From NCBI GenBank assembly GCA_030064955.1, contig JASJDW010000142.1:1-10299 (forward strand): 10,299 nucleotides of DNA, written 5' to 3'. Numbering within the stretch: position 1 is the stretch's first letter; each line of letters starts with the position of its first letter. The DNA is from Crocosphaera sp. (GTDB lineage Bacteria > Cyanobacteriota > Cyanobacteriia > Cyanobacteriales > Microcystaceae). Position numbers and translations under genes: made by a program. Below are positions 1 through 10,299 of this stretch, piece after piece. Below the pieces are notes generated by a model that did no database searches, was not told the origin of the DNA, and saw only the letters and a program-made list of their open reading frames with translations.

Positions 1-212
1 CTTTAGCTATTTCATATTACTGTTGCCTTTTCTGAACTCCTGAACTCCCGAACTCCTAACTCCTAAAACTAGAAGAGTTTGTACCGTTCGGCTTTAGCTA
101 TTTCATATTACTGTTGCCTTTTCTGAACTCCTGAACTCCCGAACTCCTAACTCCTAAAACTAGAAGAGTTTGTACCGTTCGGCTTTAGCTATTTCATATT
201 ACTGTTGCCTTT
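1..212. repeat. 91-bp tandem direct repeat, 2 full copies plus a 30-nt partial third copy; may extend beyond the window start
   Basis: Copies start at 1, 92 and 183, and I saw no mismatches. The third copy matches through 212 and then diverges. Each unit holds a heptamer/octamer tract (33-70 and 124-161: GAACTCC TGAACTCC CGAACTCC TAACTCC TAAAACT), which reads as AGGAGTT-type units on the minus strand. Confidence 0.95.
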
Positions 213-1023
213 CCCGTAGGGATATATCTCTGCCTGGATGAGAGTATAACAAAGCCAAATTATCAACTATATTAGCTATTTTAGGATGATTCTCACTAAG
301 TAATTTTTGACTCATGTTTAAAGCTTGTAAATATAAACATTCCGCCTCTTCATATCTTCTTTGATTATGATATAGTGCAGCTAAATTATTGAGGCTATCT
401 GCCACATAAATATGATTTTCTCCTAGTAACTTTTTCTTTAATTCTAAAGCTTGTAAATATAAACATTCTGCTTTTTCAAGTTTTCCCTGGTTATAGTATA
501 ATGAAGCTAAATTATTAAGACTATGGGCAAAATCAAGATTATTTTCTCCTAGTCGTTGTTTTCTCAATTCTAATCCCTGCTCAAATAATTTTTCTGCTTC
601 TTCATACCTTTCCTCATGATAATATAATATAGCTAAATTATTAAGGCTATGAATCACATCAGGATGGTCTTTTTCTAATAATCTTTCTCTCAATTCTAAA
701 GCTTGTTCAAACAAGAATTCTGCTTCTTCATATTTTTCCTGATCATCATAAAGTGAAGCTAAATTATTAGCAATATTACTATAATTCAAGTCAGATGGTC
801 TTTCAAGAATTTCATATAGTTCCAATGCTTTTGAATAATAGACAATAGCTTGTTGTTGTTCTTTTTGATAATTTTCATTTTCTCCTTTTTCCAATTTATG
901 TTTATAAGCATCTCCTAAATTTTTATAAAGTCGAATTAAACTAGGATCGTGATCCCCTTTCTCTGTTTCAACCTGTTTAACCAATATTTGTAAATCATTT
1001 AATGGTAATAAATTCTCACTCAT
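199..1023 (-). CDS. Stand-alone TPR repeat protein (kinesin-light-chain-like TPR_10/TPR_12 type, about six 42-aa repeats), apparently 3'-truncated
   Basis: The 274-aa ORF has a recurring motif, [SN]LNNLAxLYxxQxxYEEAExLxxQALELxxxLLGExH, with a 42-aa (126-nt) period. No other domain is present. The last repeat stops after helix A (NLALLYSHPGR then DISLRERQQ*). Confidence 0.85.
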   Translation of the reverse strand: MSENLLPLNDLQILVKQVETEKGDHDPSLIRLYKNLGDAYKHKLEKGENENYQKEQQQAIVYYSKALELYEILERPSDLNYSNIANNLASLYDDQEKYEEAEFLFEQALELRERLLEKDHPDVIHSLNNLAILYYHEERYEEAEKLFEQGLELRKQRLGENNLDFAHSLNNLASLYYNQGKLEKAECLYLQALELKKKLLGENHIYVADSLNNLAALYHNQRRYEEAECLYLQALNMSQKLLSENHPKIANIVDNLALLYSHPGRDISLRERQQ

Positions 1024-1106
1024 AAGCTACCTGAAATTGTTAGATAGTCTTCAATTTTTTAAGATAAAATAAAATACACAGATAACAACTCCTTAAAAAA
1101 ATAAAA

Positions 1107-1355
1107 ATGGATGCCTTTAGTCCCACACCTCCACCCTGGACAGAAACTGCTGTTCATGGGCTACAATTCTGTTGCCCTCGTTGTCATTCTACTGCGAATA
1201 AAGCCCAAAAAGCTTGGATCAATCGACAGGCCCCCGTTATAACTGAAGACTATGGCCGCCGATGGCAAGAATTTTATTTGTGTGAATGTGAACAAGCATG
1301 GTGGGCCTGGAGTAGCGATCGCCCCCCTTCTGATCTCAACAGCAACAAAGGATAG
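1107..1355 (+). CDS. Small four-Cys (CCxxC ... CxC) zinc-ribbon-like hypothetical protein, 82 aa
   Basis: The ORF is intact and visibly more GC-rich than its neighbours. It has Cys pairs CCPRC and CEC about 35 residues apart, a Trp-rich C-terminal part (WWAWSSDRPP) and an internal HIP1 site. I believe it resembles a conserved cyanobacterial small protein but cannot name a family. Confidence 0.6.
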   Translation: MDAFSPTPPPWTETAVHGLQFCCPRCHSTANKAQKAWINRQAPVITEDYGRRWQEFYLCECEQAWWAWSSDRPPSDLNSNKG

Positions 1356-1520
1356 AATAAAGATTGACACTCCCACCGTTAAGCTATCGCTGTAACGGGG
1401 GATTCTTTGTTCACAGAGGCTACTTGCTTAGACAGGATTTCTCCTATCGTAGTAGAGGTATCCTCTCCCAAAGCGTTTAGACTATCTTGTAGCCAGGTTC
1501 CTGAGTGACCCACAGTACCT
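1346..1520 (-). ncRNA. Predicted TnpB omega (right-end) RNA: a scaffold overlapping the 3' end of tnpB plus a flank-derived guide. Extent is a guess.
   Basis: Placed by analogy with characterised TnpB systems, where the guide RNA is read from the tnpB 3' end through the right end into flanking DNA. A bulged 10-bp hairpin (1371-1401) straddles the tnpB stop codon. There is no direct sequence proof of transcription. Confidence 0.3.
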
Positions 1521-2605
1521 AATCCGAGTTTTAAGATGTTGCGTGCAGCATTTTCATCACGATCTAACTGAGATCCACAAGCACAAATATGAGTCCTTGT
1601 TGAGAGAGATTTCTTGACTTTTTCTCCGCAATTAGAACAGTTTTGAGAAGTGAATTGAGGAGGGACAGCAATTGTTATCTTGCTGTGTTTTTCTCCCAAA
1701 TATTCAAGCCAAAGACGAAACTGATACCAGGCAGCATCATTAATTGATTTAGCTAAACAATGATTTTTAACTAAGTTCTTAATCCTTAAGTCTTCGTATG
1801 CTATCACATCGTTAGAGTGAATTACGCACCTTGCTAACTTCACAGCAAAGTCTTTACGTTGTCTACTTATTTTAAGGTGAGCTTTAGCTAATCTAGCCCG
1901 CGCTTTTCTTTGATTAGAAGACCCTTTCTTTTTTCTAGATAGTCTTCTTTGAAGTCTTTTAAGTTTCTTCTCTCCTTTTCTTAAGAATCTAGGGTTATCA
2001 ATTTTCTGTCCATTCTGGTCAGTGTAGAAGGACTGTAACCCAACATCTAAACCGACTACACTGTTAGCTGGTTCAGTATCTATTTTCACGTCAACAGAGA
2101 GAATGAACTGACAATAGTAGCCATCAGCCCTCCGAATTAGCCTTACCCTTTTAATTGATTCAATGGGGTAAAAGTTTAAATCGTAAGTCCCTACAAGTCT
2201 TACTTTACCAATGTTATTCTTATCTGTAAAAGTAATCGCTTTTCTGGTAGTTAGGTCGAGTTTCCAGCCAGTGGTTTTGTACTCCACAGAACGGCAATTC
2301 TTTTTAAACTTCGGGAAACCCTTTTTCCCAGGAATCTTGCGTTTACAGTTGTCGTAAAAACGAGATATAGCTGACCACGCTCTTTCGGCACTAGATTGCC
2401 TAGCTTGTGAGTTTAGCTGGTTAGCAAAGTCAAAATCATGGGCTAATACACGACAATATTTATTAAGGTCATACTTATTCACTTTTTCATGATCCATCCA
2501 AAAACGCAAGCATTTATTCTGGACAAACTGAGCCGTACGTATGGTCTCATCTATAGCTGTGTATTGATGCTTTTTAGCTCTAACTTTGAACTCTAAAACT
2601 AACAT
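1379..2605 (-). CDS. tnpB: TnpB (OrfB) RNA-guided nuclease / IS605-family accessory protein, 408 aa
   Basis: All RuvC-like motifs are present: VGLDVGLQ (Asp), IAYEDLRIKN (Glu), DRDENAARNI (Asp). The zinc finger CSNCG...HICACG is also present. The N-terminal MLVLEFKVRAK...QYxxIDExIRTAQFVxNKCLRFW is typical of cyanobacterial OrfB proteins. Confidence 0.93.
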   Translation of the reverse strand: MLVLEFKVRAKKHQYTAIDETIRTAQFVQNKCLRFWMDHEKVNKYDLNKYCRVLAHDFDFANQLNSQARQSSAERAWSAISRFYDNCKRKIPGKKGFPKFKKNCRSVEYKTTGWKLDLTTRKAITFTDKNNIGKVRLVGTYDLNFYPIESIKRVRLIRRADGYYCQFILSVDVKIDTEPANSVVGLDVGLQSFYTDQNGQKIDNPRFLRKGEKKLKRLQRRLSRKKKGSSNQRKARARLAKAHLKISRQRKDFAVKLARCVIHSNDVIAYEDLRIKNLVKNHCLAKSINDAAWYQFRLWLEYLGEKHSKITIAVPPQFTSQNCSNCGEKVKKSLSTRTHICACGSQLDRDENAARNILKLGLGTVGHSGTWLQDSLNALGEDTSTTIGEILSKQVASVNKESPVTAIA

Positions 2606-2667
2606 TTATGCTAACCTTACTAGCCTAAATATGAGTTTAGCACAAGTTTTCTGGTCTGAGCCAAAAA

Positions 2668-2708
2668 GCGGATGCGACCCAACCGCCGTAAGACGGCGGT
2701 AGGATGCG
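2668..2708. repeat. Perfect 7-bp hairpin flanked by a direct repeat, in the tnpB 5' leader inside the IS
   Basis: CCGCCGT-aag-ACGGCGG lies at 2683-2699. It is flanked by GGATGCG at 2670-2676 and 2702-2708. Function is unknown. Confidence 0.6.
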
Positions 2709-2757
2709 CGCACCAAGAAGTTGCTAAAATATGGTTGCTACGCAGTTAATATATTTG

Positions 2758-2811
2758 GTCGGGGTTTCATCCCACCGCTAACGTTCGTGTAACCGGGGTC
2801 TTCACCCCGAC
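2758..2811 (-). repeat. Left-end structured region of the IS (nested inverted repeats)
   Basis: GTCGGGG (2758-2764) pairs with CCCCGAC (2805-2811). An inner perfect hairpin is CGGGGT-cttc-ACCCCG (2794-2809). The region encloses the block shared with the right end (2770-2798). Confidence 0.75.
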
Positions 2812-2835
2812 ATTTCAAGATAAATAATTGAATCA

Positions 2836-5628
2836 ATGCGCTGTTTAAACTGCCACTTGGATAACCTTCCCGAAACTACCCAAACCTGTCCCAATTGTGG
2901 GGCGCAAGTTGTCGCTTTGTTACAAGAAGTGTTACCCCAAGGCACCCAACTGCGATCGCAGACATATTGTCTTGAAGATGCTATGGGGAAAGGCAGTTTT
3001 GGCATTACCTATCGCGCCCATCATACCGCATTAAAGAATCCTGTCGCCATTAAAGAGTTTTATCCCATTGAGTACGTATCTCGAAATATTGAAACCAAAC
3101 TATTAATTATTCCCGAAAAACATCGAGACGCATACAAAAGAAACTTATATCGTTTTTTAGAAGAAGGACAAATATTAGCTAAGCTGAATCATCCCAATGT
3201 AGTTAAAGTTAGGGATTTATTTGAAGAACGAGACACCGCTTACATTGTTATGGAGTTGGTACAAGGAAAAACTTTATTACAAGAATTAGAAAATCAGCCC
3301 AACAAAAAACTAACTCTCGACAGAATAGAAAATTTAATTGGACAATTAGTTAATGCGTTAACTGCCATTCATGAAGCAGGGATTTATCATCTAGATTTGA
3401 AACCCGAAAATATACTCTTAACCCCCAATGATCAATTGATTCTAATTGATTTTGGAGCAGCCACATTAGCCGATGATGCTAAACGAAAAAAGACCCGTTC
3501 TTTTACCGAATGTTATGCAGCCCCAGAAATTATGTCAGGGGGAGAAGTTGGCCCTGAAAGTGATCTATTTGAAGTAGGGATGATTCTTCATGAACTATTA
3601 ACAGGAACCTTGCCACCTCCAGCTATGAAGCGTGTTCTAGAAACCGATATTTGGCAGCCTCAAGGGTTAGAGCATCCTTGGGATATGTTAATCGTTGATG
3701 CGTTAAGAATTCAAAGAATCTATCGCAGTTCCACTGTAGAACAATGGTGGGAACTAAGAAAACAAAAACAAGGAAATAGTATCAACCTTGAACAAAAAAG
3801 CGTTGAAAATTTACAAGGAAAATTTACGCTGCCCTTATTACAACAACAAGGCATGACTCAAAAACTAGGGCGAGGTTGTATTAAAACAGTGATTCCGATT
3901 AATCAAATTCAAGTCTTAGTTTTAGAAGCGGGGGGCGCATCTTTATTCGATGTAAATACTGGTATTATTCCTTGGGAAATTGATTGTCCTACCTCCTGTG
4001 GAGCCATCAGCAAAAATCAAAAAATACTAGCTTTAGTTTGGCAAAAAAATATCTATTTATGGGATTTAACTCAAGGGAAATTTTTGCGACAATTACAAGG
4101 TCATTCAAAAAAAATAACTGACCTAGCGTTTAATCAAGATGGCTCTTTATTACTCTCAGGAAGCCTTGATGAAACCTTAATTATCTGGGACATTCAAACA
4201 GGCAGAAAACGTCACGAACTATCTGAACCGATGGGACGCATCACTGCCGTTGCTTTTAGCGAAGATAGTCAATTTGTTGCCTCTGGTTGCCATAGCGGAA
4301 TTGTGAGAATTTGGGGAGCTATTTCCGGTCAAGAATGGCGATGTTTAGAAGGACACCAAATGGCAGTAGAAACCTTAATTTTTAGCCCAGATAGCAAAGT
4401 ATTAGCCTCTGGCGGACAGGATCAAATCATTCATTTATGGGACGTTACTTCAGGGAAATTGCAACAAGTATTAGAAGGCCATCAAGACTGGATAACAGCA
4501 TTAAATTTTGATAAAACAGCAAGTTATTTAGCCTCTGCATCAGCAATTAATGATAAAACCATTCGTATTTGGTCTGTTGCACAAGGACAACCCACCCAAC
4601 AACTACAGGGTCACAGTAACACCATCCAAGCGATCGCTTTTTGTCCCGATGATCGTTATTTGGTCTCAGCAGCATTAGACAACACTATCCGTCTCTGGGA
4701 CAGAGAAACTGGAAAGGCGATCAAACAACTACAACAACATACCAATTGGGTGTATAGTGTGGCTTGTAGTGGGGACGGTCGTTGGGTGGCGATCGGATAC
4801 AGCGATTGGACGGTACATCTTTGGGATATCATTGAACAACGGGAAGTTAGTTGTCTTGAAGGTCATGAAAGTGCTGTTTCTAGTGTGGCCTTTTGTCCTG
4901 ATAATCAACATCTTATCTCTGGGAGTTGGGATGGAACCCTAAGAGTCTGGGATATTCACACAGGAAAATGTAAACGCATTTTACAGGGTCATCAACACTG
5001 GGTTAGTTGTGTTGCGGTGAGTTCTAATGGTCAATGGGTTGCGTCTGGAAGTTGGGATAAAACTGTTTGTCTTTGGGAGACTACTAATAGTTGGCACCAG
5101 TTTAAAATCAGTAAACCTACTCGTATTTTACAGGGTCATTTAGAAGATATTGAAGGGGTTGCTTTTAGTCCTGATAGTCAATTAATTGCTAGTTCTGGTA
5201 ATGATAAAACCATTAAAATATGGGAAGTTGTATCCGGTCAACAGGTTCAACAATTAGAGGGTCATAAATATAGTGTAGAGGATTTGGTTTTTAGTCCCGA
5301 TGGTCAATTTATTGCTTCAGTTAGTCGAGATAAAACTGTTAGAGTTTGGCACGTTATTTCTGGTAAAGAAATTCATCGATTTCAAGGCCATACCAATTAT
5401 GTTAAATGTGTGGCGTTTAGTTTGGAAGGTCGGTATTTGGCCTCAGGGGGAAAAGATCAAATGATTGCCATTTGGGATTTAATTTCAGGCGAATTAACTC
5501 AATTAATTCAAGGTCATACCAATTGTATTAATAGTATTGCTTTTACTGGGGATGGTTCTTTTTTAGTGTCTGGAGATAATGATGGAGTGGTTCGGTTATG
5601 GAAATTACAGTTAGGAAGCGAGGGTTAG
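2836..5628 (+). CDS. Multidomain Hanks-type Ser/Thr protein kinase: N-terminal CxxC-x11-CxxC zinc ribbon, kinase domain, C-terminal WD40 array (12 clear plus 2 degenerate blades)
   Basis: Kinase motifs seen: G-loop GKGSFGITY, VAIKE Lys, catalytic loop HLDLKPEN (3388-3411), DFG (3448-3456), APE. These are followed by repeated GH-x(23-30)-WD units from about aa 345 to the C-terminus. Confidence 0.93.
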   Translation: MRCLNCHLDNLPETTQTCPNCGAQVVALLQEVLPQGTQLRSQTYCLEDAMGKGSFGITYRAHHTALKNPVAIKEFYPIEYVSRNIETKLLIIPEKHRDAYKRNLYRFLEEGQILAKLNHPNVVKVRDLFEERDTAYIVMELVQGKTLLQELENQPNKKLTLDRIENLIGQLVNALTAIHEAGIYHLDLKPENILLTPNDQLILIDFGAATLADDAKRKKTRSFTECYAAPEIMSGGEVGPESDLFEVGMILHELLTGTLPPPAMKRVLETDIWQPQGLEHPWDMLIVDALRIQRIYRSSTVEQWWELRKQKQGNSINLEQKSVENLQGKFTLPLLQQQGMTQKLGRGCIKTVIPINQIQVLVLEAGGASLFDVNTGIIPWEIDCPTSCGAISKNQKILALVWQKNIYLWDLTQGKFLRQLQGHSKKITDLAFNQDGSLLLSGSLDETLIIWDIQTGRKRHELSEPMGRITAVAFSEDSQFVASGCHSGIVRIWGAISGQEWRCLEGHQMAVETLIFSPDSKVLASGGQDQIIHLWDVTSGKLQQVLEGHQDWITALNFDKTASYLASASAINDKTIRIWSVAQGQPTQQLQGHSNTIQAIAFCPDDRYLVSAALDNTIRLWDRETGKAIKQLQQHTNWVYSVACSGDGRWVAIGYSDWTVHLWDIIEQREVSCLEGHESAVSSVAFCPDNQHLISGSWDGTLRVWDIHTGKCKRILQGHQHWVSCVAVSSNGQWVASGSWDKTVCLWETTNSWHQFKISKPTRILQGHLEDIEGVAFSPDSQLIASSGNDKTIKIWEVVSGQQVQQLEGHKYSVEDLVFSPDGQFIASVSRDKTVRVWHVISGKEIHRFQGHTNYVKCVAFSLEGRYLASGGKDQMIAIWDLISGELTQLIQGHTNCINSIAFTGDGSFLVSGDNDGVVRLWKLQLGSEG

Positions 5629-5683
5629 GAGTCAGGAGTTCCACAGCGAAGCTCCGGCTAAGCGCGAACAGGAGTCAGGAGTT
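5627..5683 (+). repeat. STRR-like element: two copies of AGGAGTCAGGAGTT flanking a 29-nt GC-rich core
   Basis: AGGAGTCAGGAGTT occurs at 5627-5640, overlapping the last two bases of the kinase stop codon TAG (5626-5628), and again at 5670-5683. The core is CCACAGCGAAGCTCCGGCTAAGCGCGAAC. Confidence 0.85.
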
Positions 5684-5715
5684 ATAATAAGTTGGATAGT
5701 AAAGAGTGAACTATT

Positions 5716-6141
5716 ATGGAACCTTTTACCACTGCAAAAATTCTGGAGTTTGTGGTAGGTGCAGTGATTACAATGGGGGTAGAAAATCTTCCAACTGCCA
5801 CTAAAAAACTCTGGCAAACTATTCGTAACCGTCTGCAAAATCAACCCGTTGCACAAGTAGCGATCGCAGAAATTGAGGAAAATAACTCGCCAGATCAAAT
5901 TCCCAAATTGGCCCCTTTCTTGGAGGTGGAAATGCTGTCTGATGAGACGTTTGAACAACAGGTGCAGCAGTTAGCAAAAGAAGCTATTGAGCAAGATAAA
6001 GAAACAATTAATATTTATGTTGCTAAAGCTGAAAAAAGTACAGTTGTTGGGAAGCAAGAAGCAGAAAATCTAAACAATTATAATGCAGAAACAATTAGTA
6101 ATATTGGCACACAGAATGTTATTAACGTAAAAAAGGAATAG
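5716..6141 (+). CDS. Hypothetical 141-aa protein with a hydrophobic N-terminal helix and an acidic/Gln-rich helical remainder; probably the N-terminal module of the downstream STAND protein
   Basis: The ORF starts MEPFTTAKILEFVVGAVITMGVENL. It ends two codons after an A_AAA_AAG heptamer. The -1 frame is open from there into the NB-ARC ORF. Confidence 0.6.
   Translation: MEPFTTAKILEFVVGAVITMGVENLPTATKKLWQTIRNRLQNQPVAQVAIAEIEENNSPDQIPKLAPFLEVEMLSDETFEQQVQQLAKEAIEQDKETINIYVAKAEKSTVVGKQEAENLNNYNAETISNIGTQNVINVKKE
6129..6135 (+). promoter_or_regulatory. Candidate -1 programmed ribosomal frameshift slippery site A_AAA_AAG (alternatively the site of a 1-nt homopolymer indel)
   Basis: In the 5716 frame the codons are GTA AAA AAG GAA TAG. 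A -1 slip continues GGA ATA GGG ... in the frame of ORF 6267..9008. I could not find an obvious downstream stimulatory stem-loop or an upstream SD-like element. Confidence 0.4.
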
Positions 6142-6266
6142 GGGAAAATGATGTACAACGACTCATAGAATTTTGGCAAGAAAAACCTGATAGGAAAGCG
6201 ACCTTAGCATCAAGTTTAATTACATCGCCTCCTGTTGTTAAACCTTGGGTAGATAGGTTAGAAGAA

Positions 6267-9008
6267 ATGACCACTATTCAAGGTTGGTTTGATGATGCTG
6301 ACGTTAATTTAATGGGTATTGTTGGGTTAGGTGGAATCGGAAAATCTGCCTTAGCTGCGTATTTTTATAATAGATTTTCTCCTTCTCCCACACTCCCCAC
6401 ACCTCCCACACTGCCCACCCTCAAATTCTGGGCTGATGTTAGTTTAAATCCCGATTTTGCTGCTTTTGCTGAATCCATTATTAAGGGTTTATCAGGAACT
6501 TTGAATGCGACGGGTGACGTTAATATTTTAATTGCTGATTTATTCAAGATTTTACATCAACATCGTTGTTTATTGGTGGTGGATAATGTTGAAACTTTGC
6601 TAAACGAATCAGGAGAATGGCAAAGCGAAAATTATACTACCTTTTTCCAGCGTTGGAAGCAACAGGGACACACCAGTATTTTGTTATTGACCACAAGAGA
6701 TAAACCTAACCTTTATCGAGGGAATAATTATTGGTATTCTTTGGGAACTTTCACAGTTGATGAAGGTAAAACTTTATTAAAAGCATTACAAATTGAAGGA
6801 AGTGACAAAGACTTAGAACAATTAGTTACTAAAATAAATGGTCATGCGTTGACCTTAAGATTAGTGGCAGCATACCTCAAAGAATATTGTGATAGTCAAC
6901 TAAGTCAAGTGAGAGAATTGGGGTTAGATGAATTTGAGTTAATTTACGAAGAAGCATCAGGACTCCATCGTCATAAAAACGATGCACGATTATCATGGAT
7001 ATTAGAACAACATTTAACCCGTTTAAGTGAACAACAAAGACAATTTTTAGTTAATTTATCCGTCTATCGTCAACCCTTTGATGTAACAGCAGCAACAGGG
7101 ATGTATATCAATGCTAATTTTACAGAAGGAGAGACAGAAGCAACCATAAAACCCATAGAAGTCAAGAAAGAATTACAAAATTTAGCTAATCGTTCCTTAT
7201 TATCTCGTAGCGATGAAAAAGGTTATGAATGTCCCCTATTACTTAAACCCTATTTACAGAAAAAATATCCCGACTTAACCCAGTGTCATCAAATAGCGAT
7301 TAATTATTATTTATCTATTGTTCCCCCGAAACCCTGGACAAACCTCGATCAGATACAAGGATATTTAGAGATTTTCTATCATTGGTATCAATTAGGAGAA
7401 TATGACACTGCATTTGATTATTTGCGTCATGTTGATGAGTTTATGACCCTTCAGGGATATTATCATCTTCAGGTCAAATATTATTCAGATTTAGTGAGGA
7501 TTTATGAGGAAATAGAAGATCAAAATAATTGGAACTATGCTGCTTCTCTCACTTCTTTGGGGAATGCTTACCAATCCCTGGGACAATATCAACAAGCGAT
7601 ACAACACCATCAACAGTCTTTAGCTATCTTTATAGAAATAGAGAATCGCAACGGTGAAGAGTCTTCCTATGGTAATTTGGGGAATGCTTACTTTTCCCTG
7701 GGAAAATATCAAGAAGCGATAGAATACTATCAACAGTCTTTAGCTATCACCACAGAAATCGGAGATCGCAATGGTGAAGCTAATTCCTATATAGGTTTGG
7801 GGAATGCTTACTTTTCCCTGGGACAATATCAACAAGCAATAGAAGACTATAATAAATCTTTAGCTATCTTTCAAAAAATCGGAGATCGCAAGGGTGAAGC
7901 TAATTCCTACAGTAATTTGGGGAGTGCTTACGATTCCCTGGGAAAATATCAAGAAGCGATAGAATACCATCAACAGTCCTTAGCTATCACCACAGAAATA
8001 GGCGATCGCAATGGTGAAGCTACTTCCTATATAGGTTTGGGGATTGCTTACCGTTCCCTGGGAAAATATCAAGAAGCGATAGAATACTATCAACAGTCCT
8101 TAGCTATCCAAACAGAAATCGGCGATCGCAACGGTGAAGCTAATTCCTATGGTAATTTGGGAAATGCTTACTCTTCCCTGGGACAATATCAAGAAGCGAT
8201 AGAATACCATCAACAGTCCTTAGCTATCACCACAGAAATAGGCGATCGCAATGGTGAAGCTAATTCCTATATAGGTTTGGGGAATGCTTACTCTTCCCTG
8301 GGACAATATCAACAAGCGATAGAATACCATCAACAATCTTTAGCTATCCAAACAGAAATCGGCGATCGCAACGGTGAAGCTAATTCCTATATAGGTTTGG
8401 GGAATACTTACTCTTCCCTGGGACAATATCAACAAGCGATAGAATACTATCAACAGTCTTTAGCTATCACCACAGAAATCGGCGCTCACAATGGTGAAGC
8501 TAGTTCCTATAATAATTTTGGGAATGTTTACTATTTGCTGGGACAATATCAACAAGCGATACAATACTATCAACAGTCTTTAGCTATCACCACAGAAATC
8601 GGCGCTCACAATGGTGAAGCTACTTCCTATATGGGTTTGGGGAATGCTTACCGTTCCCTGGGACAATATCAACAAGCAATAGAATACTATCAACAGTCCT
8701 TAGCTATCAAAAGAGAAATCGGCGATCGCTATGGTGAAGCAAATGCTTGGTTTAACTTAGGATTAACATTAAAGAAATTAAACCGTAAATCAGAAGCAAA
8801 AGAATGTTATCAAAAATCTCGTCAATTATATCAAGTAATGGGACTGGATCGAGATGTTCAAGACTGTAACAACCAACTCATCAAACTACAACGAGGATGG
8901 TTAGAAAAGATTTTTTATTTTATCTTAGGAGTGATTAAGTTTCCTGTTGCGTTAGTTGTGTTTGTTTTGCTCAAAGTTTGGGAATGGATTAGAAAAATGA
9001 TTCATTAG
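6267..9008 (+). CDS. STAND NTPase: NB-ARC domain plus about eleven 40-aa TPR repeats plus a C-terminal hydrophobic tail. The annotated ATG is probably not the true N-terminus, because the frame is open from 6126.
   Basis: Motifs seen: Walker A GLGGIGKS (6324-6347), Walker B LLVVDNVE (Asp at 6582), LLLTTRD, GHALTL (GxP-like). The TPR units have consensus GEAxSYxxLGNAYxSLGQYQQAIEYxQQSLAIxxEIGDRN. The tail is IFYFILGVIKFPVALVVFVLLKVW. Confidence 0.9.
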   Translation: MTTIQGWFDDADVNLMGIVGLGGIGKSALAAYFYNRFSPSPTLPTPPTLPTLKFWADVSLNPDFAAFAESIIKGLSGTLNATGDVNILIADLFKILHQHRCLLVVDNVETLLNESGEWQSENYTTFFQRWKQQGHTSILLLTTRDKPNLYRGNNYWYSLGTFTVDEGKTLLKALQIEGSDKDLEQLVTKINGHALTLRLVAAYLKEYCDSQLSQVRELGLDEFELIYEEASGLHRHKNDARLSWILEQHLTRLSEQQRQFLVNLSVYRQPFDVTAATGMYINANFTEGETEATIKPIEVKKELQNLANRSLLSRSDEKGYECPLLLKPYLQKKYPDLTQCHQIAINYYLSIVPPKPWTNLDQIQGYLEIFYHWYQLGEYDTAFDYLRHVDEFMTLQGYYHLQVKYYSDLVRIYEEIEDQNNWNYAASLTSLGNAYQSLGQYQQAIQHHQQSLAIFIEIENRNGEESSYGNLGNAYFSLGKYQEAIEYYQQSLAITTEIGDRNGEANSYIGLGNAYFSLGQYQQAIEDYNKSLAIFQKIGDRKGEANSYSNLGSAYDSLGKYQEAIEYHQQSLAITTEIGDRNGEATSYIGLGIAYRSLGKYQEAIEYYQQSLAIQTEIGDRNGEANSYGNLGNAYSSLGQYQEAIEYHQQSLAITTEIGDRNGEANSYIGLGNAYSSLGQYQQAIEYHQQSLAIQTEIGDRNGEANSYIGLGNTYSSLGQYQQAIEYYQQSLAITTEIGAHNGEASSYNNFGNVYYLLGQYQQAIQYYQQSLAITTEIGAHNGEATSYMGLGNAYRSLGQYQQAIEYYQQSLAIKREIGDRYGEANAWFNLGLTLKKLNRKSEAKECYQKSRQLYQVMGLDRDVQDCNNQLIKLQRGWLEKIFYFILGVIKFPVALVVFVLLKVWEWIRKMIH
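7561..8760 (+). repeat. Ten in-phase 120-bp tandem DNA repeats encoding the TPR units, with no indels and high nucleotide identity
   Basis: Units start at 7561, 7681, 7801, 7921, 8041, 8161, 8281, 8401, 8521 and 8641. For example, 8161-8280 versus 8281-8400 differ at 9 of 120 positions by my count, and 7981-8040 versus 8221-8280 differ at 1 of 60. More degenerate units flank the array on both sides. Confidence 0.95.
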
Positions 9009-9190
9009 GGTTGAGGAATTTCTAAATCTCTACAAATTTTGCGGACTAAAAACTCATTAATTTCTCGATGTCTTGGAATCGCTGACACTTTTTGAACCAT
9101 TCGATTAACATAGATTGTATGATTTCCTCCTTCTCGAAGAAACTCGCATCCATTGACTTCTAAATGCTTAATTAAATCTCGTCTTTTCAT
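9005..9190 (-). CDS. hicA: HicA-family type II toxin (mRNA interferase), 61 aa
   Basis: The sequence MKRRDLIKHLEVNGCEFLREGGNHTIYVN...SAIPRHREI matches the HicA/YcfA pattern, including the conserved GxxH and IPRH segments. Its start codon overlaps the hicB stop. Confidence 0.85.
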   Translation of the reverse strand: MKRRDLIKHLEVNGCEFLREGGNHTIYVNRMVQKVSAIPRHREINEFLVRKICRDLEIPQP

Positions 9191-9405
9191 TACCCTGATA
9201 CAGTTAGGGTTTCTCTAATAACATCCATTCCTTGAATAGATTCTTCTGCTAACATTCGATTAGCTTCTAAGACTAAATCTATTGCTTCTAATAAATTACT
9301 TCTCGCTTCCTCTAGGGTTGTTCCTTGAGTGTTTGCACCTGGTAATTCTTCAACAAAAGCAATATAACCTTCTGGAACCTTTTGAAAAATTGCTGTTAAC
9401 TGCAT
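9190..9405 (-). CDS. hicB: HicB-family antitoxin, short form (UPF0150-like fold only), 71 aa
   Basis: The sequence MQLTAIFQKVPEGYIAFVEELPGANTQGTTLEEARSNLLEAIDLVLEA is the typical HicB N-terminal domain. It is coupled to hicA through a TAATG overlap at 9188-9192. Confidence 0.8.
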   Translation of the reverse strand: MQLTAIFQKVPEGYIAFVEELPGANTQGTTLEEARSNLLEAIDLVLEANRMLAEESIQGMDVIRETLTVSG

Positions 9406-9546
9406 AAATGTCCATTTTTATTGTTCCTAAGTCATTATATCATAAAATTTTTTATCATCTGTTCATCTCGTTTACACCCACTAAATTATTTATTTATATA
9501 AAATATATATTAACCCATGCTGACTACGATAAGGAGAACTGGAAAA

Positions 9547-9948
9547 ATGACCCTTACTTTTAATCGAGACACTTACGGAAGTTTACTGGCTAAATATCAA
9601 CCTAAAATTATTGAAACTGAGGAAGAAAACGAACAAGCGATCGCCCTTTGTGAACAACTTTCTCATGTTGAAAAGCCAAGTTTAGAAGAATCAGCGTTCT
9701 TGGAATTATTAATCACCTTAATTGAAAAGTATGAAGCAGAGAATTATCCCATTTCCCAAGCATTACCCCATGAAATATTGACTCATTTGATGGAAAGTAG
9801 AAACTTAGACATCCAACAACTATTAAACATTTTAGGAACAGATTTAATTAATCAAGAAATATTAACAGGTGAACGAAAAATTACTGATGAACAAGCCAAA
9901 AGACTAAGTATGTTTTTTAATGTTTCTTCCGATCTATTTAGATTATAA
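9547..9948 (+). CDS. HTH (XRE-type, COG5499/HigA-like) antitoxin-type transcriptional regulator; start moved to the internal ATG
   Basis: The N-terminal part has YxxLLxxYxPKxIETEEENEQA...LIEKYE. The C-terminal part has an HTH-like segment (LTHLMESRNLDIQQLLNILG...ILTGERKITDEQAKRLSMFFNVSSDLF). AAGGAG at 9531-9536 precedes ATG 9547; the ORF-track start at 9517 has no SD. Confidence 0.7.
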   Translation: MTLTFNRDTYGSLLAKYQPKIIETEEENEQAIALCEQLSHVEKPSLEESAFLELLITLIEKYEAENYPISQALPHEILTHLMESRNLDIQQLLNILGTDLINQEILTGERKITDEQAKRLSMFFNVSSDLFRL

Positions 9949-9974
9949 CCATAATTTAAACAAAGAGAATAACC

Positions 9975-10175
9975 ATGAAAGTTAAATATGATCCAGAATC
10001 AGATATTTTAATTTTTATCATCAAAGATATTCCCCCCTCTAATGCTATTTCAGAAGCAGGAGAAATTATTATTAGTTATGATGAGACAGGTGAACCTATT
10101 AGCATTGAATTTTTAAATGCTTCTAAAAGACAATTAATTAATCCCCAAGAAACTGCTTTACAAATTCATCAATAA
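9975..10175 (+). CDS. DUF2283-family small protein, 66 aa
   Basis: MKVKYDPESDILIFIIKD...ISYDETGEPISIEFLNASK matches the DUF2283 pattern (YDxExDxL ... DxxGxxxGIExL). Confidence 0.7.
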   Translation: MKVKYDPESDILIFIIKDIPPSNAISEAGEIIISYDETGEPISIEFLNASKRQLINPQETALQIHQ

Positions 10176-10194
10176 ACTTATTTTTTTAATGATC

Positions 10195-10299
10195 ATGATA
10201 AAAATTTATTATGAACCCGAAACAGAACTTTTAACTATATTTTGGCAAACTCCCAGAAAAAATCAAATCTGTACTGAATTAGATAATGGTGTTATTTAA
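10195..10299 (+). CDS. Second DUF2283-like paralogue, only 34 codons before an in-frame TAA at the window edge (truncated copy or very short ORF)
   Basis: My own translation gives MIKIYYEPETELLTIFWQTPRKNQICTELDNGVI*. The segment KIYYEPETELLTIF parallels KVKYDPESDILIFI of the preceding gene. The ORF is below the ORF-track length cut-off. Confidence 0.35.
   Translation: MIKIYYEPETELLTIFWQTPRKNQICTELDNGVI

Follow-up and report, generated by a model that had tools for sequence, protein, structure and literature searches.

We analysed a 10,299-nt stretch of DNA from Crocosphaera sp. (contig JASJDW010000142.1, positions 1 to 10,299 of the forward strand; the whole stretch is called the window below). 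On its plus strand, a small open reading frame (ORF, 5716..6141) encoding 141 amino acid residues is followed, in the -1 frame, by a long ORF for an NB-ARC/TPR protein (6267..9008). Judged from the sequences of the locus and its relatives, programmed -1 ribosomal frameshifting is probably the best account of this arrangement. The locus would then be one translational unit on which ribosomes start at ATG 5716. The majority would stop at the TAG at 6139 and release the 141-aa protein, composed of a Bell-like helical bundle and a disordered tail, and a minority would slip back one base on the slippery heptamer A_AAA_AAG, with tRNA-Lys moving from AAG to re-pair with AAA. The slipped ribosomes would read the -1 frame via a 44-codon linker into the NB-ARC/TPR sensor, giving an effector-sensor fusion of 1097 aa.

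The 3' end of the small ORF (6124-6141) reads AAC GTA AAA AAG GAA TAG. The heptamer (6129-6135, plus strand) contains an A6 run (6129-6134) and stands in the X_XXY_YYZ phase, and the 0-frame stop TAG (6139-6141) lies one codon past it. In the -1 frame, a TAA at 6123-6125 marks the 5' limit of the interval that permits a shift into the open fusion; from 6126 on, this frame is stop-free to 9008, comprising 960 codons in all. Because the -1-frame TAA and the 0-frame TAG bound the overlap, a productive -1 shift is confined to 6126-6138, and the heptamer takes up most of this permitted interval. The predicted fusion is 1097 aa long, with ...NVINVKK followed at the junction by GIGENDVQR. Between 6126 and the ATG at 6267, the -1 frame contains 47 codons (RKKGIGEND...DRLEE), among which ATG, GTG, TTG and CTG are all absent. 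An earlier reading made from the letters alone (the sequence-only reading) had described the end of the small ORF, the heptamer and its phase, the 47 open codons without a start and a fusion of about 1097 aa, and all of these agree with the window sequence. A tiny 0-frame ORF (ATG ATG TAC AAC GAC TCA TAG, 6148-6168), with GGGG before it, follows the TAG and most likely arises incidentally from the -1-frame coding of E-N-D-V-Q-R-L-I.

The heptamer by itself is no evidence of recoding, since two further in-phase copies of A_AAA_AAG exist in ORFs of the window, at 3486-3492 in a kinase ORF and at 1928-1934 on the minus strand in a TnpB ORF; no -1 frame of note is open at either place. AAAAAAG occurs six times in the window against 7.8 expected, and thus the heptamer alone is neither enriched nor rarer than chance. 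In the window's long ORFs, an in-phase X_XXY_YYZ is found at 1.5% of codon positions and an in-phase X_XXA_AAG at 3/2656. As the heptamer by itself is not unusual in the window, the weight of the case rests on its placement and its conservation.

We compared the window with orthologous loci, a check that the sequence-only reading had proposed for separating recoding from an indel, and the two-frame layout, the heptamer and the stop are kept in 13/13 loci. The 13 distinct loci are the window, L001, L007/L010, L008/L011, L012, L014, L015, L017-L021 and L024; twelve of them are Crocosphaera-type (73-100% nucleotide identity), and L024 is from a distant cyanobacterium with 55% nucleotide identity in the N-domain of the small protein. 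An in-phase A_AAA_AAG or G_GGA_AAG is located near the end of the small ORF in all 13, with the 0-frame stop 0 or 3 nt past the heptamer. In every Crocosphaera-type locus, the opening of the -1 frame lies 0-10 codons upstream of the heptamer, and from there the frame leads on into the NB-ARC domain; L015 permits the shift within the heptamer itself and nowhere else. The isolate Crocosphaera chwakensis CCY0110 (L001) has the junction TTG GGA AAG GAA TAG, with G_GGA_AAG in phase, and the same gene order as the window, namely Ser/Thr kinase-WD40, small ORF, and NB-ARC/TPR in the -1 frame. The junction of L024 reads CTG GGA AAG TAG, after which the NB-ARC ORF follows in the -1 frame.

G_GGA_AAG, with a run of only G3A3, is present in 7/13 loci, and A_AAA_AAG intermingles with G_GGA_AAG in a neighbour-joining tree built from the N-domain DNA, so the slipperiness has survived repeated replacement of the heptamer. 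Both forms are rated highly shift-prone in E. coli (PMC5009743). The 0-frame residues at the site vary (VKK, LKK, TKK, EKK and LGK) and the nucleotide pattern X_XXA_AAG is constant; its AAAG core is invariant in the orthologue alignment (A3). AAG is the minority codon for Lys in the window (19%), yet it is invariant at the shift site in this alignment. The only conserved neighbour of the heptamer is the 0-frame stop codon. Downstream of the shift site, the NLR ORFs of the loci are intact, with 631-982 codons, and are under purifying selection. The 141-aa protein is unchanged on five further contigs from at least three sequencing samples, in which the junction, including A6, is identical to that of the window. 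Homologue searches found no fused single-ORF orthologue within the Crocosphaera clade.

The -1-frame linker between the shift site and Met 6267 comprises 44 codons (6135..6266, plus strand; GIGENDVQRLIEFWQEKPDRKATLASSLITSPPVVKPWVDRLEE) without ATG, GTG or TTG, and shows coding-type substitution in the -1 frame only. Among the orthologues, 38% of the differing codon pairs in the linker are synonymous in the -1 frame, versus 10-11% in the other two frames. No stop occurs in the -1 frame of any orthologous linker, against three to seven in each other frame, and the length differences are +1 or +10 codons, i.e., multiples of three. In the six orthologues without gaps, the highest synonymous fraction switches frames at the heptamer: it belongs to frame 0 upstream (33%) and to the -1 frame downstream (35% over the first linker half, 68% over the second). 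In its evolution, the linker behaves as protein-coding sequence of the -1 frame. No ATG, GTG or TTG is kept across the orthologous loci in the first ~35 linker codons, and four loci, including the window, have none of these across all 46-47 codons up to the Met. The codon adjacent to the stop is ATA, CTA, TTA or GTA, with no consistent start there. The linker also encodes, upstream of Met 6267, a family-specific segment, LITSPPxxxPWVxRxEE (LITTPP....WVGR.EE in homologues), which is common to the cyanobacterial NLR homologues; in the homologue P0011, a caspase domain lies in-frame upstream of this segment (LITTPP..WVGR.EE).

The 141-aa product looks like a Bell-type helical effector. Its N-terminus, MEPFTTAKILEFVVGAV, has an acidic residue at position 2 and then a hydrophobic helix. 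AlphaFold2, with a 61-sequence alignment, predicts a five-helix bundle for residues 1-107 (5716..6036, plus strand), with helices at 6-20, 27-39, 44-56, 59-75 and 77-107 and a pLDDT >90 over residues 1-100. The C-terminal tail, residues 109-141 (6040..6138, plus strand; ...NLNNYNAETISNIGTQNVINV), is predicted to be disordered, with a pLDDT <50. From its sequence, the tail is a candidate amyloid-signalling motif, and it resembles the Bell/NLR motif ...GKIYNADQITINE of Crocosphaera watsonii (supplement, Dyrka et al.), a species whose pairs are listed in the Bell-domain literature (10.1101/2020.01.06.895854). The protein matches Bell effectors in its MEP- start and hydrophobic first helix, in size, in having a disordered tail and in its place upstream of an NB-ARC/TPR gene. 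The small protein has 14 homologues with 64-100% identity and 116-141 aa, none of them fused within one ORF, and their C-termini are ..KK[ED], ..GKE or ..KK. A profile search of 1.84 billion representatives gave 61 relatives, nearly all of them stand-alone proteins of 90-155 aa.

The ORF 6267..9008 (plus strand, -1 frame) encodes 913 aa from its ATG and spans 957 codons from the shift site. It has the features of a STAND NB-ARC/TPR (NLR-like) NTPase: a Walker A motif GLGGIGKS, an NB-ARC domain and then a repeat sensor domain. The Pfam NB-ARC (PF00931) match scores 39.7 bits versus a cut-off of 23.5 and covers residues 185-389 of the fusion; 11 TPR_12 stretches follow it (TPR_12 match, E 2e-175). 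Ten tandem 120-nt (40-aa) units form the TPR array at 7436..8815 (plus strand), with a mutual nucleotide identity of 73-88%, falling to 61% at the array edge; high internal conservation of repeat units is a feature noted for NLR sensor domains. The range of lengths of the orthologous NLR ORFs suggests that the number of TPR repeats varies. Near the C-terminus, a hydrophobic segment, IFYFILGVIKFPVALVVFVLLKVW (8910..8981, plus strand), is a possible membrane anchor on the NLR, and comparable hydrophobic tails are found in P0001, P0005 and P0070.

Several observations weigh against frameshifting or make it less certain. The 13 loci are mutually related, mostly metagenomic and many of them from one study, and they cannot be counted as 13 independent cases. 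Substitution counts over the first linker half are small, with 15 variable sites. The sequence-only reading had proposed to look for a downstream stimulatory fold, but neither RNAalifold on 12 junctions, which gave no conserved structure near the site, nor single folds of the 65-100 nt 3' of the site, which were not stabler than shuffles (z -1.2 to +1.5), reveal one. No Shine-Dalgarno (SD)-like stimulator was found upstream of the heptamer, and Rfam gave no match on the window or the junction. A 9-nt long-range complement between 6133-6152 and 7225-7244 was considered as a stimulator and rejected, being within chance expectation. A stimulatory element is common at tandem-slippage -1 frameshift sites and is not obligatory; since neither a structure nor an SD-like element was found, the shift efficiency may be low, only a few per cent. 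In E. coli, A_AAG owes its slipperiness to the decoding of AAG by a single tRNA-Lys(UUU), a condition that Crocosphaera may or may not share. The Bell assignment, too, rests on shared features and context and not on a profile match, because the small-protein domain has no match in Pfam, NCBIfam, the PDB sequence profile or, by Foldseek, the PDB folds; neither Pfam nor NCBIfam holds any Bell model.

Met185, encoded at 6267, is 19 residues ahead of the Walker A motif, as the sequence-only reading stated, and that reading further held that a start at 6267 would clip the domain. The family-specific LITSPPxxxPWVxRxEE segment would indeed go, but the Pfam NB-ARC domain would hardly be shortened: its match begins exactly at Met185, at model position 5 of 248, and the clipped-domain argument is therefore weaker than first thought. 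This Met is kept across the Crocosphaera clade. Independent initiation of an untagged NLR at 6267 could occur alongside frameshifting or even be dominant.

The corresponding alternative is two ordinary adjacent genes, with the small protein ending at TAG 6139, the NLR translated independently from ATG 6267, or by reinitiation or from a rare linker start, and the heptamer being incidental. Annotation pipelines do call two genes, in three relatives of the wider family (L031, L032 and L034) the genes are indeed separate and have an ATG or GTG of their own, and the window has in-phase slippery heptamers elsewhere without apparent function. We nevertheless regard two ordinary genes as unlikely. They leave unexplained why 44-56 open codons precede the Met, why the indels in them are in-frame and why the orthologues show a -1-frame synonymous bias there. 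Nor do they explain why X_XXA_AAG and its adjacent stop persist even as the residues encoded there vary. No consistent start is offered by the codon that adjoins the stop, the distant L024 has Ile instead of Met at the position equivalent to 6267, and the NLR of true two-gene relatives bears a second tail-motif copy that is absent from the window. No promoter-like or terminator-like site was found on the plus strand between the two ORFs.

Joining at the level of nucleic acid, either through phase variation of the A-run in DNA or through RNA polymerase slippage giving +1A transcripts, appears highly improbable. Known sites of transcriptional slippage require runs of some 8-9 or longer, and the run available here is A6, which is below that. 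The length of the A-run shows no polymorphism among independent contigs. Transcriptional slippage does have a precedent in some bacterial genes and insertion sequence (IS) elements (PMC5009743); phase variation and transcriptional slippage fit the present locus poorly because the run is only G3A3 in 7/13 loci and what is conserved, the heptamer's codon phase, is relevant to ribosomes and not to polymerases. Finally, the sequence-only reading had offered, beside recoding, a single gene broken by the loss of one A (A7 to A6), whether as a pseudogene, a recent mutation or a sequencing or assembly error; homopolymer runs are indel-prone and one added A would restore a single ORF, but this is effectively excluded by the same frame break at 13 loci of 55-100% nucleotide identity, one of them an isolate genome, by the non-homopolymeric G_GGA_AAG in about half of the loci, by the lack of a fused orthologue in the clade, by intact downstream ORFs under purifying selection and by the five further contigs that agree on A6. 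Between the two readings it had offered, the conservation in orthologues, the coding status of the linker and the replicates of A6 favour recoding.

In the wider family, we distinguished four architectures. The first is a single-ORF fusion, represented by the distant P0070, the only single-ORF relative, whose alignment to the predicted fusion is collinear over residues 1 to ~598 (E 3e-90). The second is the -1 frameshift arrangement of the 13 loci. In the third, a single in-frame TGA is followed, in the same frame, by 759-1474 open codons of NB-ARC/TPR. Seven loci have this form: L025 on the plasmid pCC7120gamma of Nostoc sp. PCC 7120 (4915-4960) and L026, L027, L029, L030, L033 and L035 on Acaryochloris plasmids. 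These plasmid loci were reached by tblastn only from more typical family members; tblastn against plasmids with the window N-domain and with P0046 found nothing. The TGA of these loci usually reads TGA C, and PGAP places the start of the downstream gene at ATT, ATA or ATC in 5/7 and at GTG in 2/7. The UGA is part of a conserved two-tier hairpin and lies in its outer stem (UUGACU...AGUUAA), which encloses a GC-rich inner stem with one compensatory pair; the hairpin is formable in 7/7 sequences (94.8% of cells paired), and the junction of the UGA variant has no significant Rfam match (best E 3.9). These sequence features suggest programmed UGA readthrough or other UGA recoding as an alternative to the -1 frameshift; selenocysteine was among the readings considered for the UGA. 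The fourth architecture consists of the separate genes of L031, L032 and L034. One more homologue, P0013 (L023:1620-2417), joins the N-domain, to ~residue 103, in-frame directly with TPRs, and the tail, linker and NB-ARC are missing; this protein, encoded on a 2.4-kb contig of a Crocosphaera metagenome-assembled genome, represents either an in-frame deletion that occurs in nature or a chimera made by the assembly, and we set it aside.

The architectures differ in the distribution of the tail motif. The separate-gene loci L031 and L032 bear a second copy at the NLR N-terminus (z 4.6 and 7.2), and none of the 10 recoded loci tested (five frameshift and five UGA) has one (z <=1.0). In the window itself, the tail shows no similarity to the downstream 110 residues (z 0.5), which makes the window a variant instead of a canonical Bell/NLR pair. 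This pattern, a second copy at separate-gene loci and none at recoded loci, motivates a functional model, which we put forward tentatively and by analogy: the rare fusion may act as a sensor whose clustered tails activate the abundant free effector. Oligomerisation of the NLR would cluster the fusion tails, which would template the free effector into an active, membrane-targeting state. Two-gene Bell/BASS-NLR amyloid-signalling pairs work by such tail templating (10.1101/2020.01.06.895854; 10.1101/2024.11.07.622273). Because the same codons encode both, the fusion and the free effector would have the same tail motif, and no second copy would be needed on the NLR, since recoding would hand it the effector together with its tail.

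Comparisons with known systems suggest that the locus combines two known kinds, namely a -1 frameshift like that of dnaX and IS3 and the effector-sensor pair of Bell/NLR systems. In E. coli dnaX (tau/gamma), as would hold for the window, A_AAA_AAG is read by tRNA-Lys and one mRNA gives two products that share their N-terminal part at a set ratio. However, the shifted product of dnaX is the shorter one, whereas that of the window would be the longer one, and the dnaX site has an SD-like element upstream and a hairpin downstream; in the window neither was found, and the stop is the only conserved neighbour. The OrfA/OrfAB arrangement of IS3-family elements (IS911, IS150) resembles the window in its small ORF with an A_AAA_AAG-type heptamer just before the stop, its -1-frame ORF without a start of its own and, on the reading proposed here, its minor, active fusion beside which the short product acts. 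In contrast, these are transposases of mobile elements, usually with a downstream structure, and the NLR-like locus of the window is chromosomal and keeps its synteny between Crocosphaera genomes. Conceptually closest are the lambda-like tail assembly chaperones G/GT, with an abundant short form and a rare long form sharing an N-terminal module, in which the extra domain of the long form connects the short form to a partner, but these chaperones are unrelated in function to the proteins of the locus and not homologous to them. Also comparable are copA and csoS2, chromosomal genes that give two functional isoforms through -1 frameshifting; they belong to other gene families, and their shifted product is the truncated form. 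Of these, csoS2 occurs in cyanobacteria and chemoautotrophs (PMC5009743).

On the effector side, Bell/BASS/NLR amyloid-signalling pairs are described in cyanobacteria and actinobacteria, with the C-terminal BASS motif of the effector mirrored at the NLR N-terminus (10.1101/2020.01.06.895854; 10.1101/2024.11.07.622273). The window shares with them a helical MEP- protein of ~140 aa, with a hydrophobic first helix and a disordered tail, directly upstream of a collinear NB-ARC/TPR gene, and rare all-in-one fusions exist among these pairs. Their NLR has its own start and its own motif copy; the NLR ORF of the window has neither. The words 'frameshift', 'stop codon' and 'readthrough' are absent from Dyrka et al. 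2020 (10.1101/2020.01.06.895854), 'stop codon' is absent from the Bab/Agp preprint (10.1101/2024.11.07.622273), and no prior report of a frameshift-joined or UGA-joined arrangement was found in the literature searched.

Directly upstream of the small ORF, the window encodes a 930-aa Ser/Thr kinase-WD40 protein (2836-5628, plus strand) with an N-terminal zinc-ribbon-like CxxC..CxxC. C. chwakensis and L002-L004 keep its gene in synteny with the locus; L014, L015 and L023 have instead a pyridine-nucleotide disulfide oxidoreductase gene upstream, on the opposite strand. Further upstream are a TnpB/IS605 OrfB-like gene (1379-2605, minus strand; OrfB_IS605 and a Cas12f1-like TNB domain), which is unrelated to the locus, and, adjoining it, a TPR-only ORF of 274 aa (199-1023, minus strand), which may be a remnant of another NLR-type gene. 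Positions 1-212 of the window contain a 91-nt unit repeated 2.3 times with 100% identity, which holds GAACTCC-type heptamer repeats; the reverse complement of this motif, AGGAGT[CT], is repeated at 5620-5690, just upstream of the small ORF. Downstream of the NLR ORF are HicA-like (9005-9190, minus strand) and HicB/UPF0150-like (9190-9405, minus strand) genes of toxin-antitoxin type, an ORF at 9517-9948 (plus strand) and a DUF2283 ORF (9975-10175, plus strand). The ORF at 9517-9948 appears HTH-antitoxin-like by eye, with a weak AAA_lid as its sole Pfam match; as a partner of the locus it was ruled out, being unrelated to the N-domain of the small protein. The equivalent position holds MqsA/DUF4258 in L001 and UPF0150/HicA in L014, and because these small downstream genes differ between the window, L001 and L014, the NLR sits in a variable island.

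To our knowledge, conserved programmed frameshifts in bacterial chromosomal genes are few, comprising dnaX, prfB, copA, csoS2 and a handful more. The present locus, if the frameshift is true, adds one in an immune-type NLR system, where none was found reported in the literature searched. Annotation pipelines mis-start these NLR genes, such as that of C. chwakensis, for which PGAP gives a GTG start, so surveys of NLR N-terminal domains will miss this class. Both recoding routes, the -1 frameshift and the in-frame UGA, would provide from one mRNA an abundant free effector and a rare effector-NLR fusion with a shared signalling tail. Translational recoding may conceivably be a recurrent, convergent wiring of Bell-type death effectors to NLR sensors in cyanobacteria, although we hold this with some reserve. 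If so, recoding could make the level of armed sensor depend on how faithfully the cell translates, e.g., during stress or phage infection; in Anabaena, a derepressed plasmid tRNA operon raises frameshifting and readthrough (PMC10272220), and any tie of the present locus to translational stress is speculative. Relatives arrive at this architecture by three other routes, namely an in-frame UGA, a true gene fusion and a two-gene form in which the motif is duplicated, which suggests selection on stoichiometry and not on one mechanism. The locus thus offers a testable idea for how effector and sensor may be coupled and dosed, in which both products would share the effector and its tail and the ratio of short to long product would be fixed by the ribosome.

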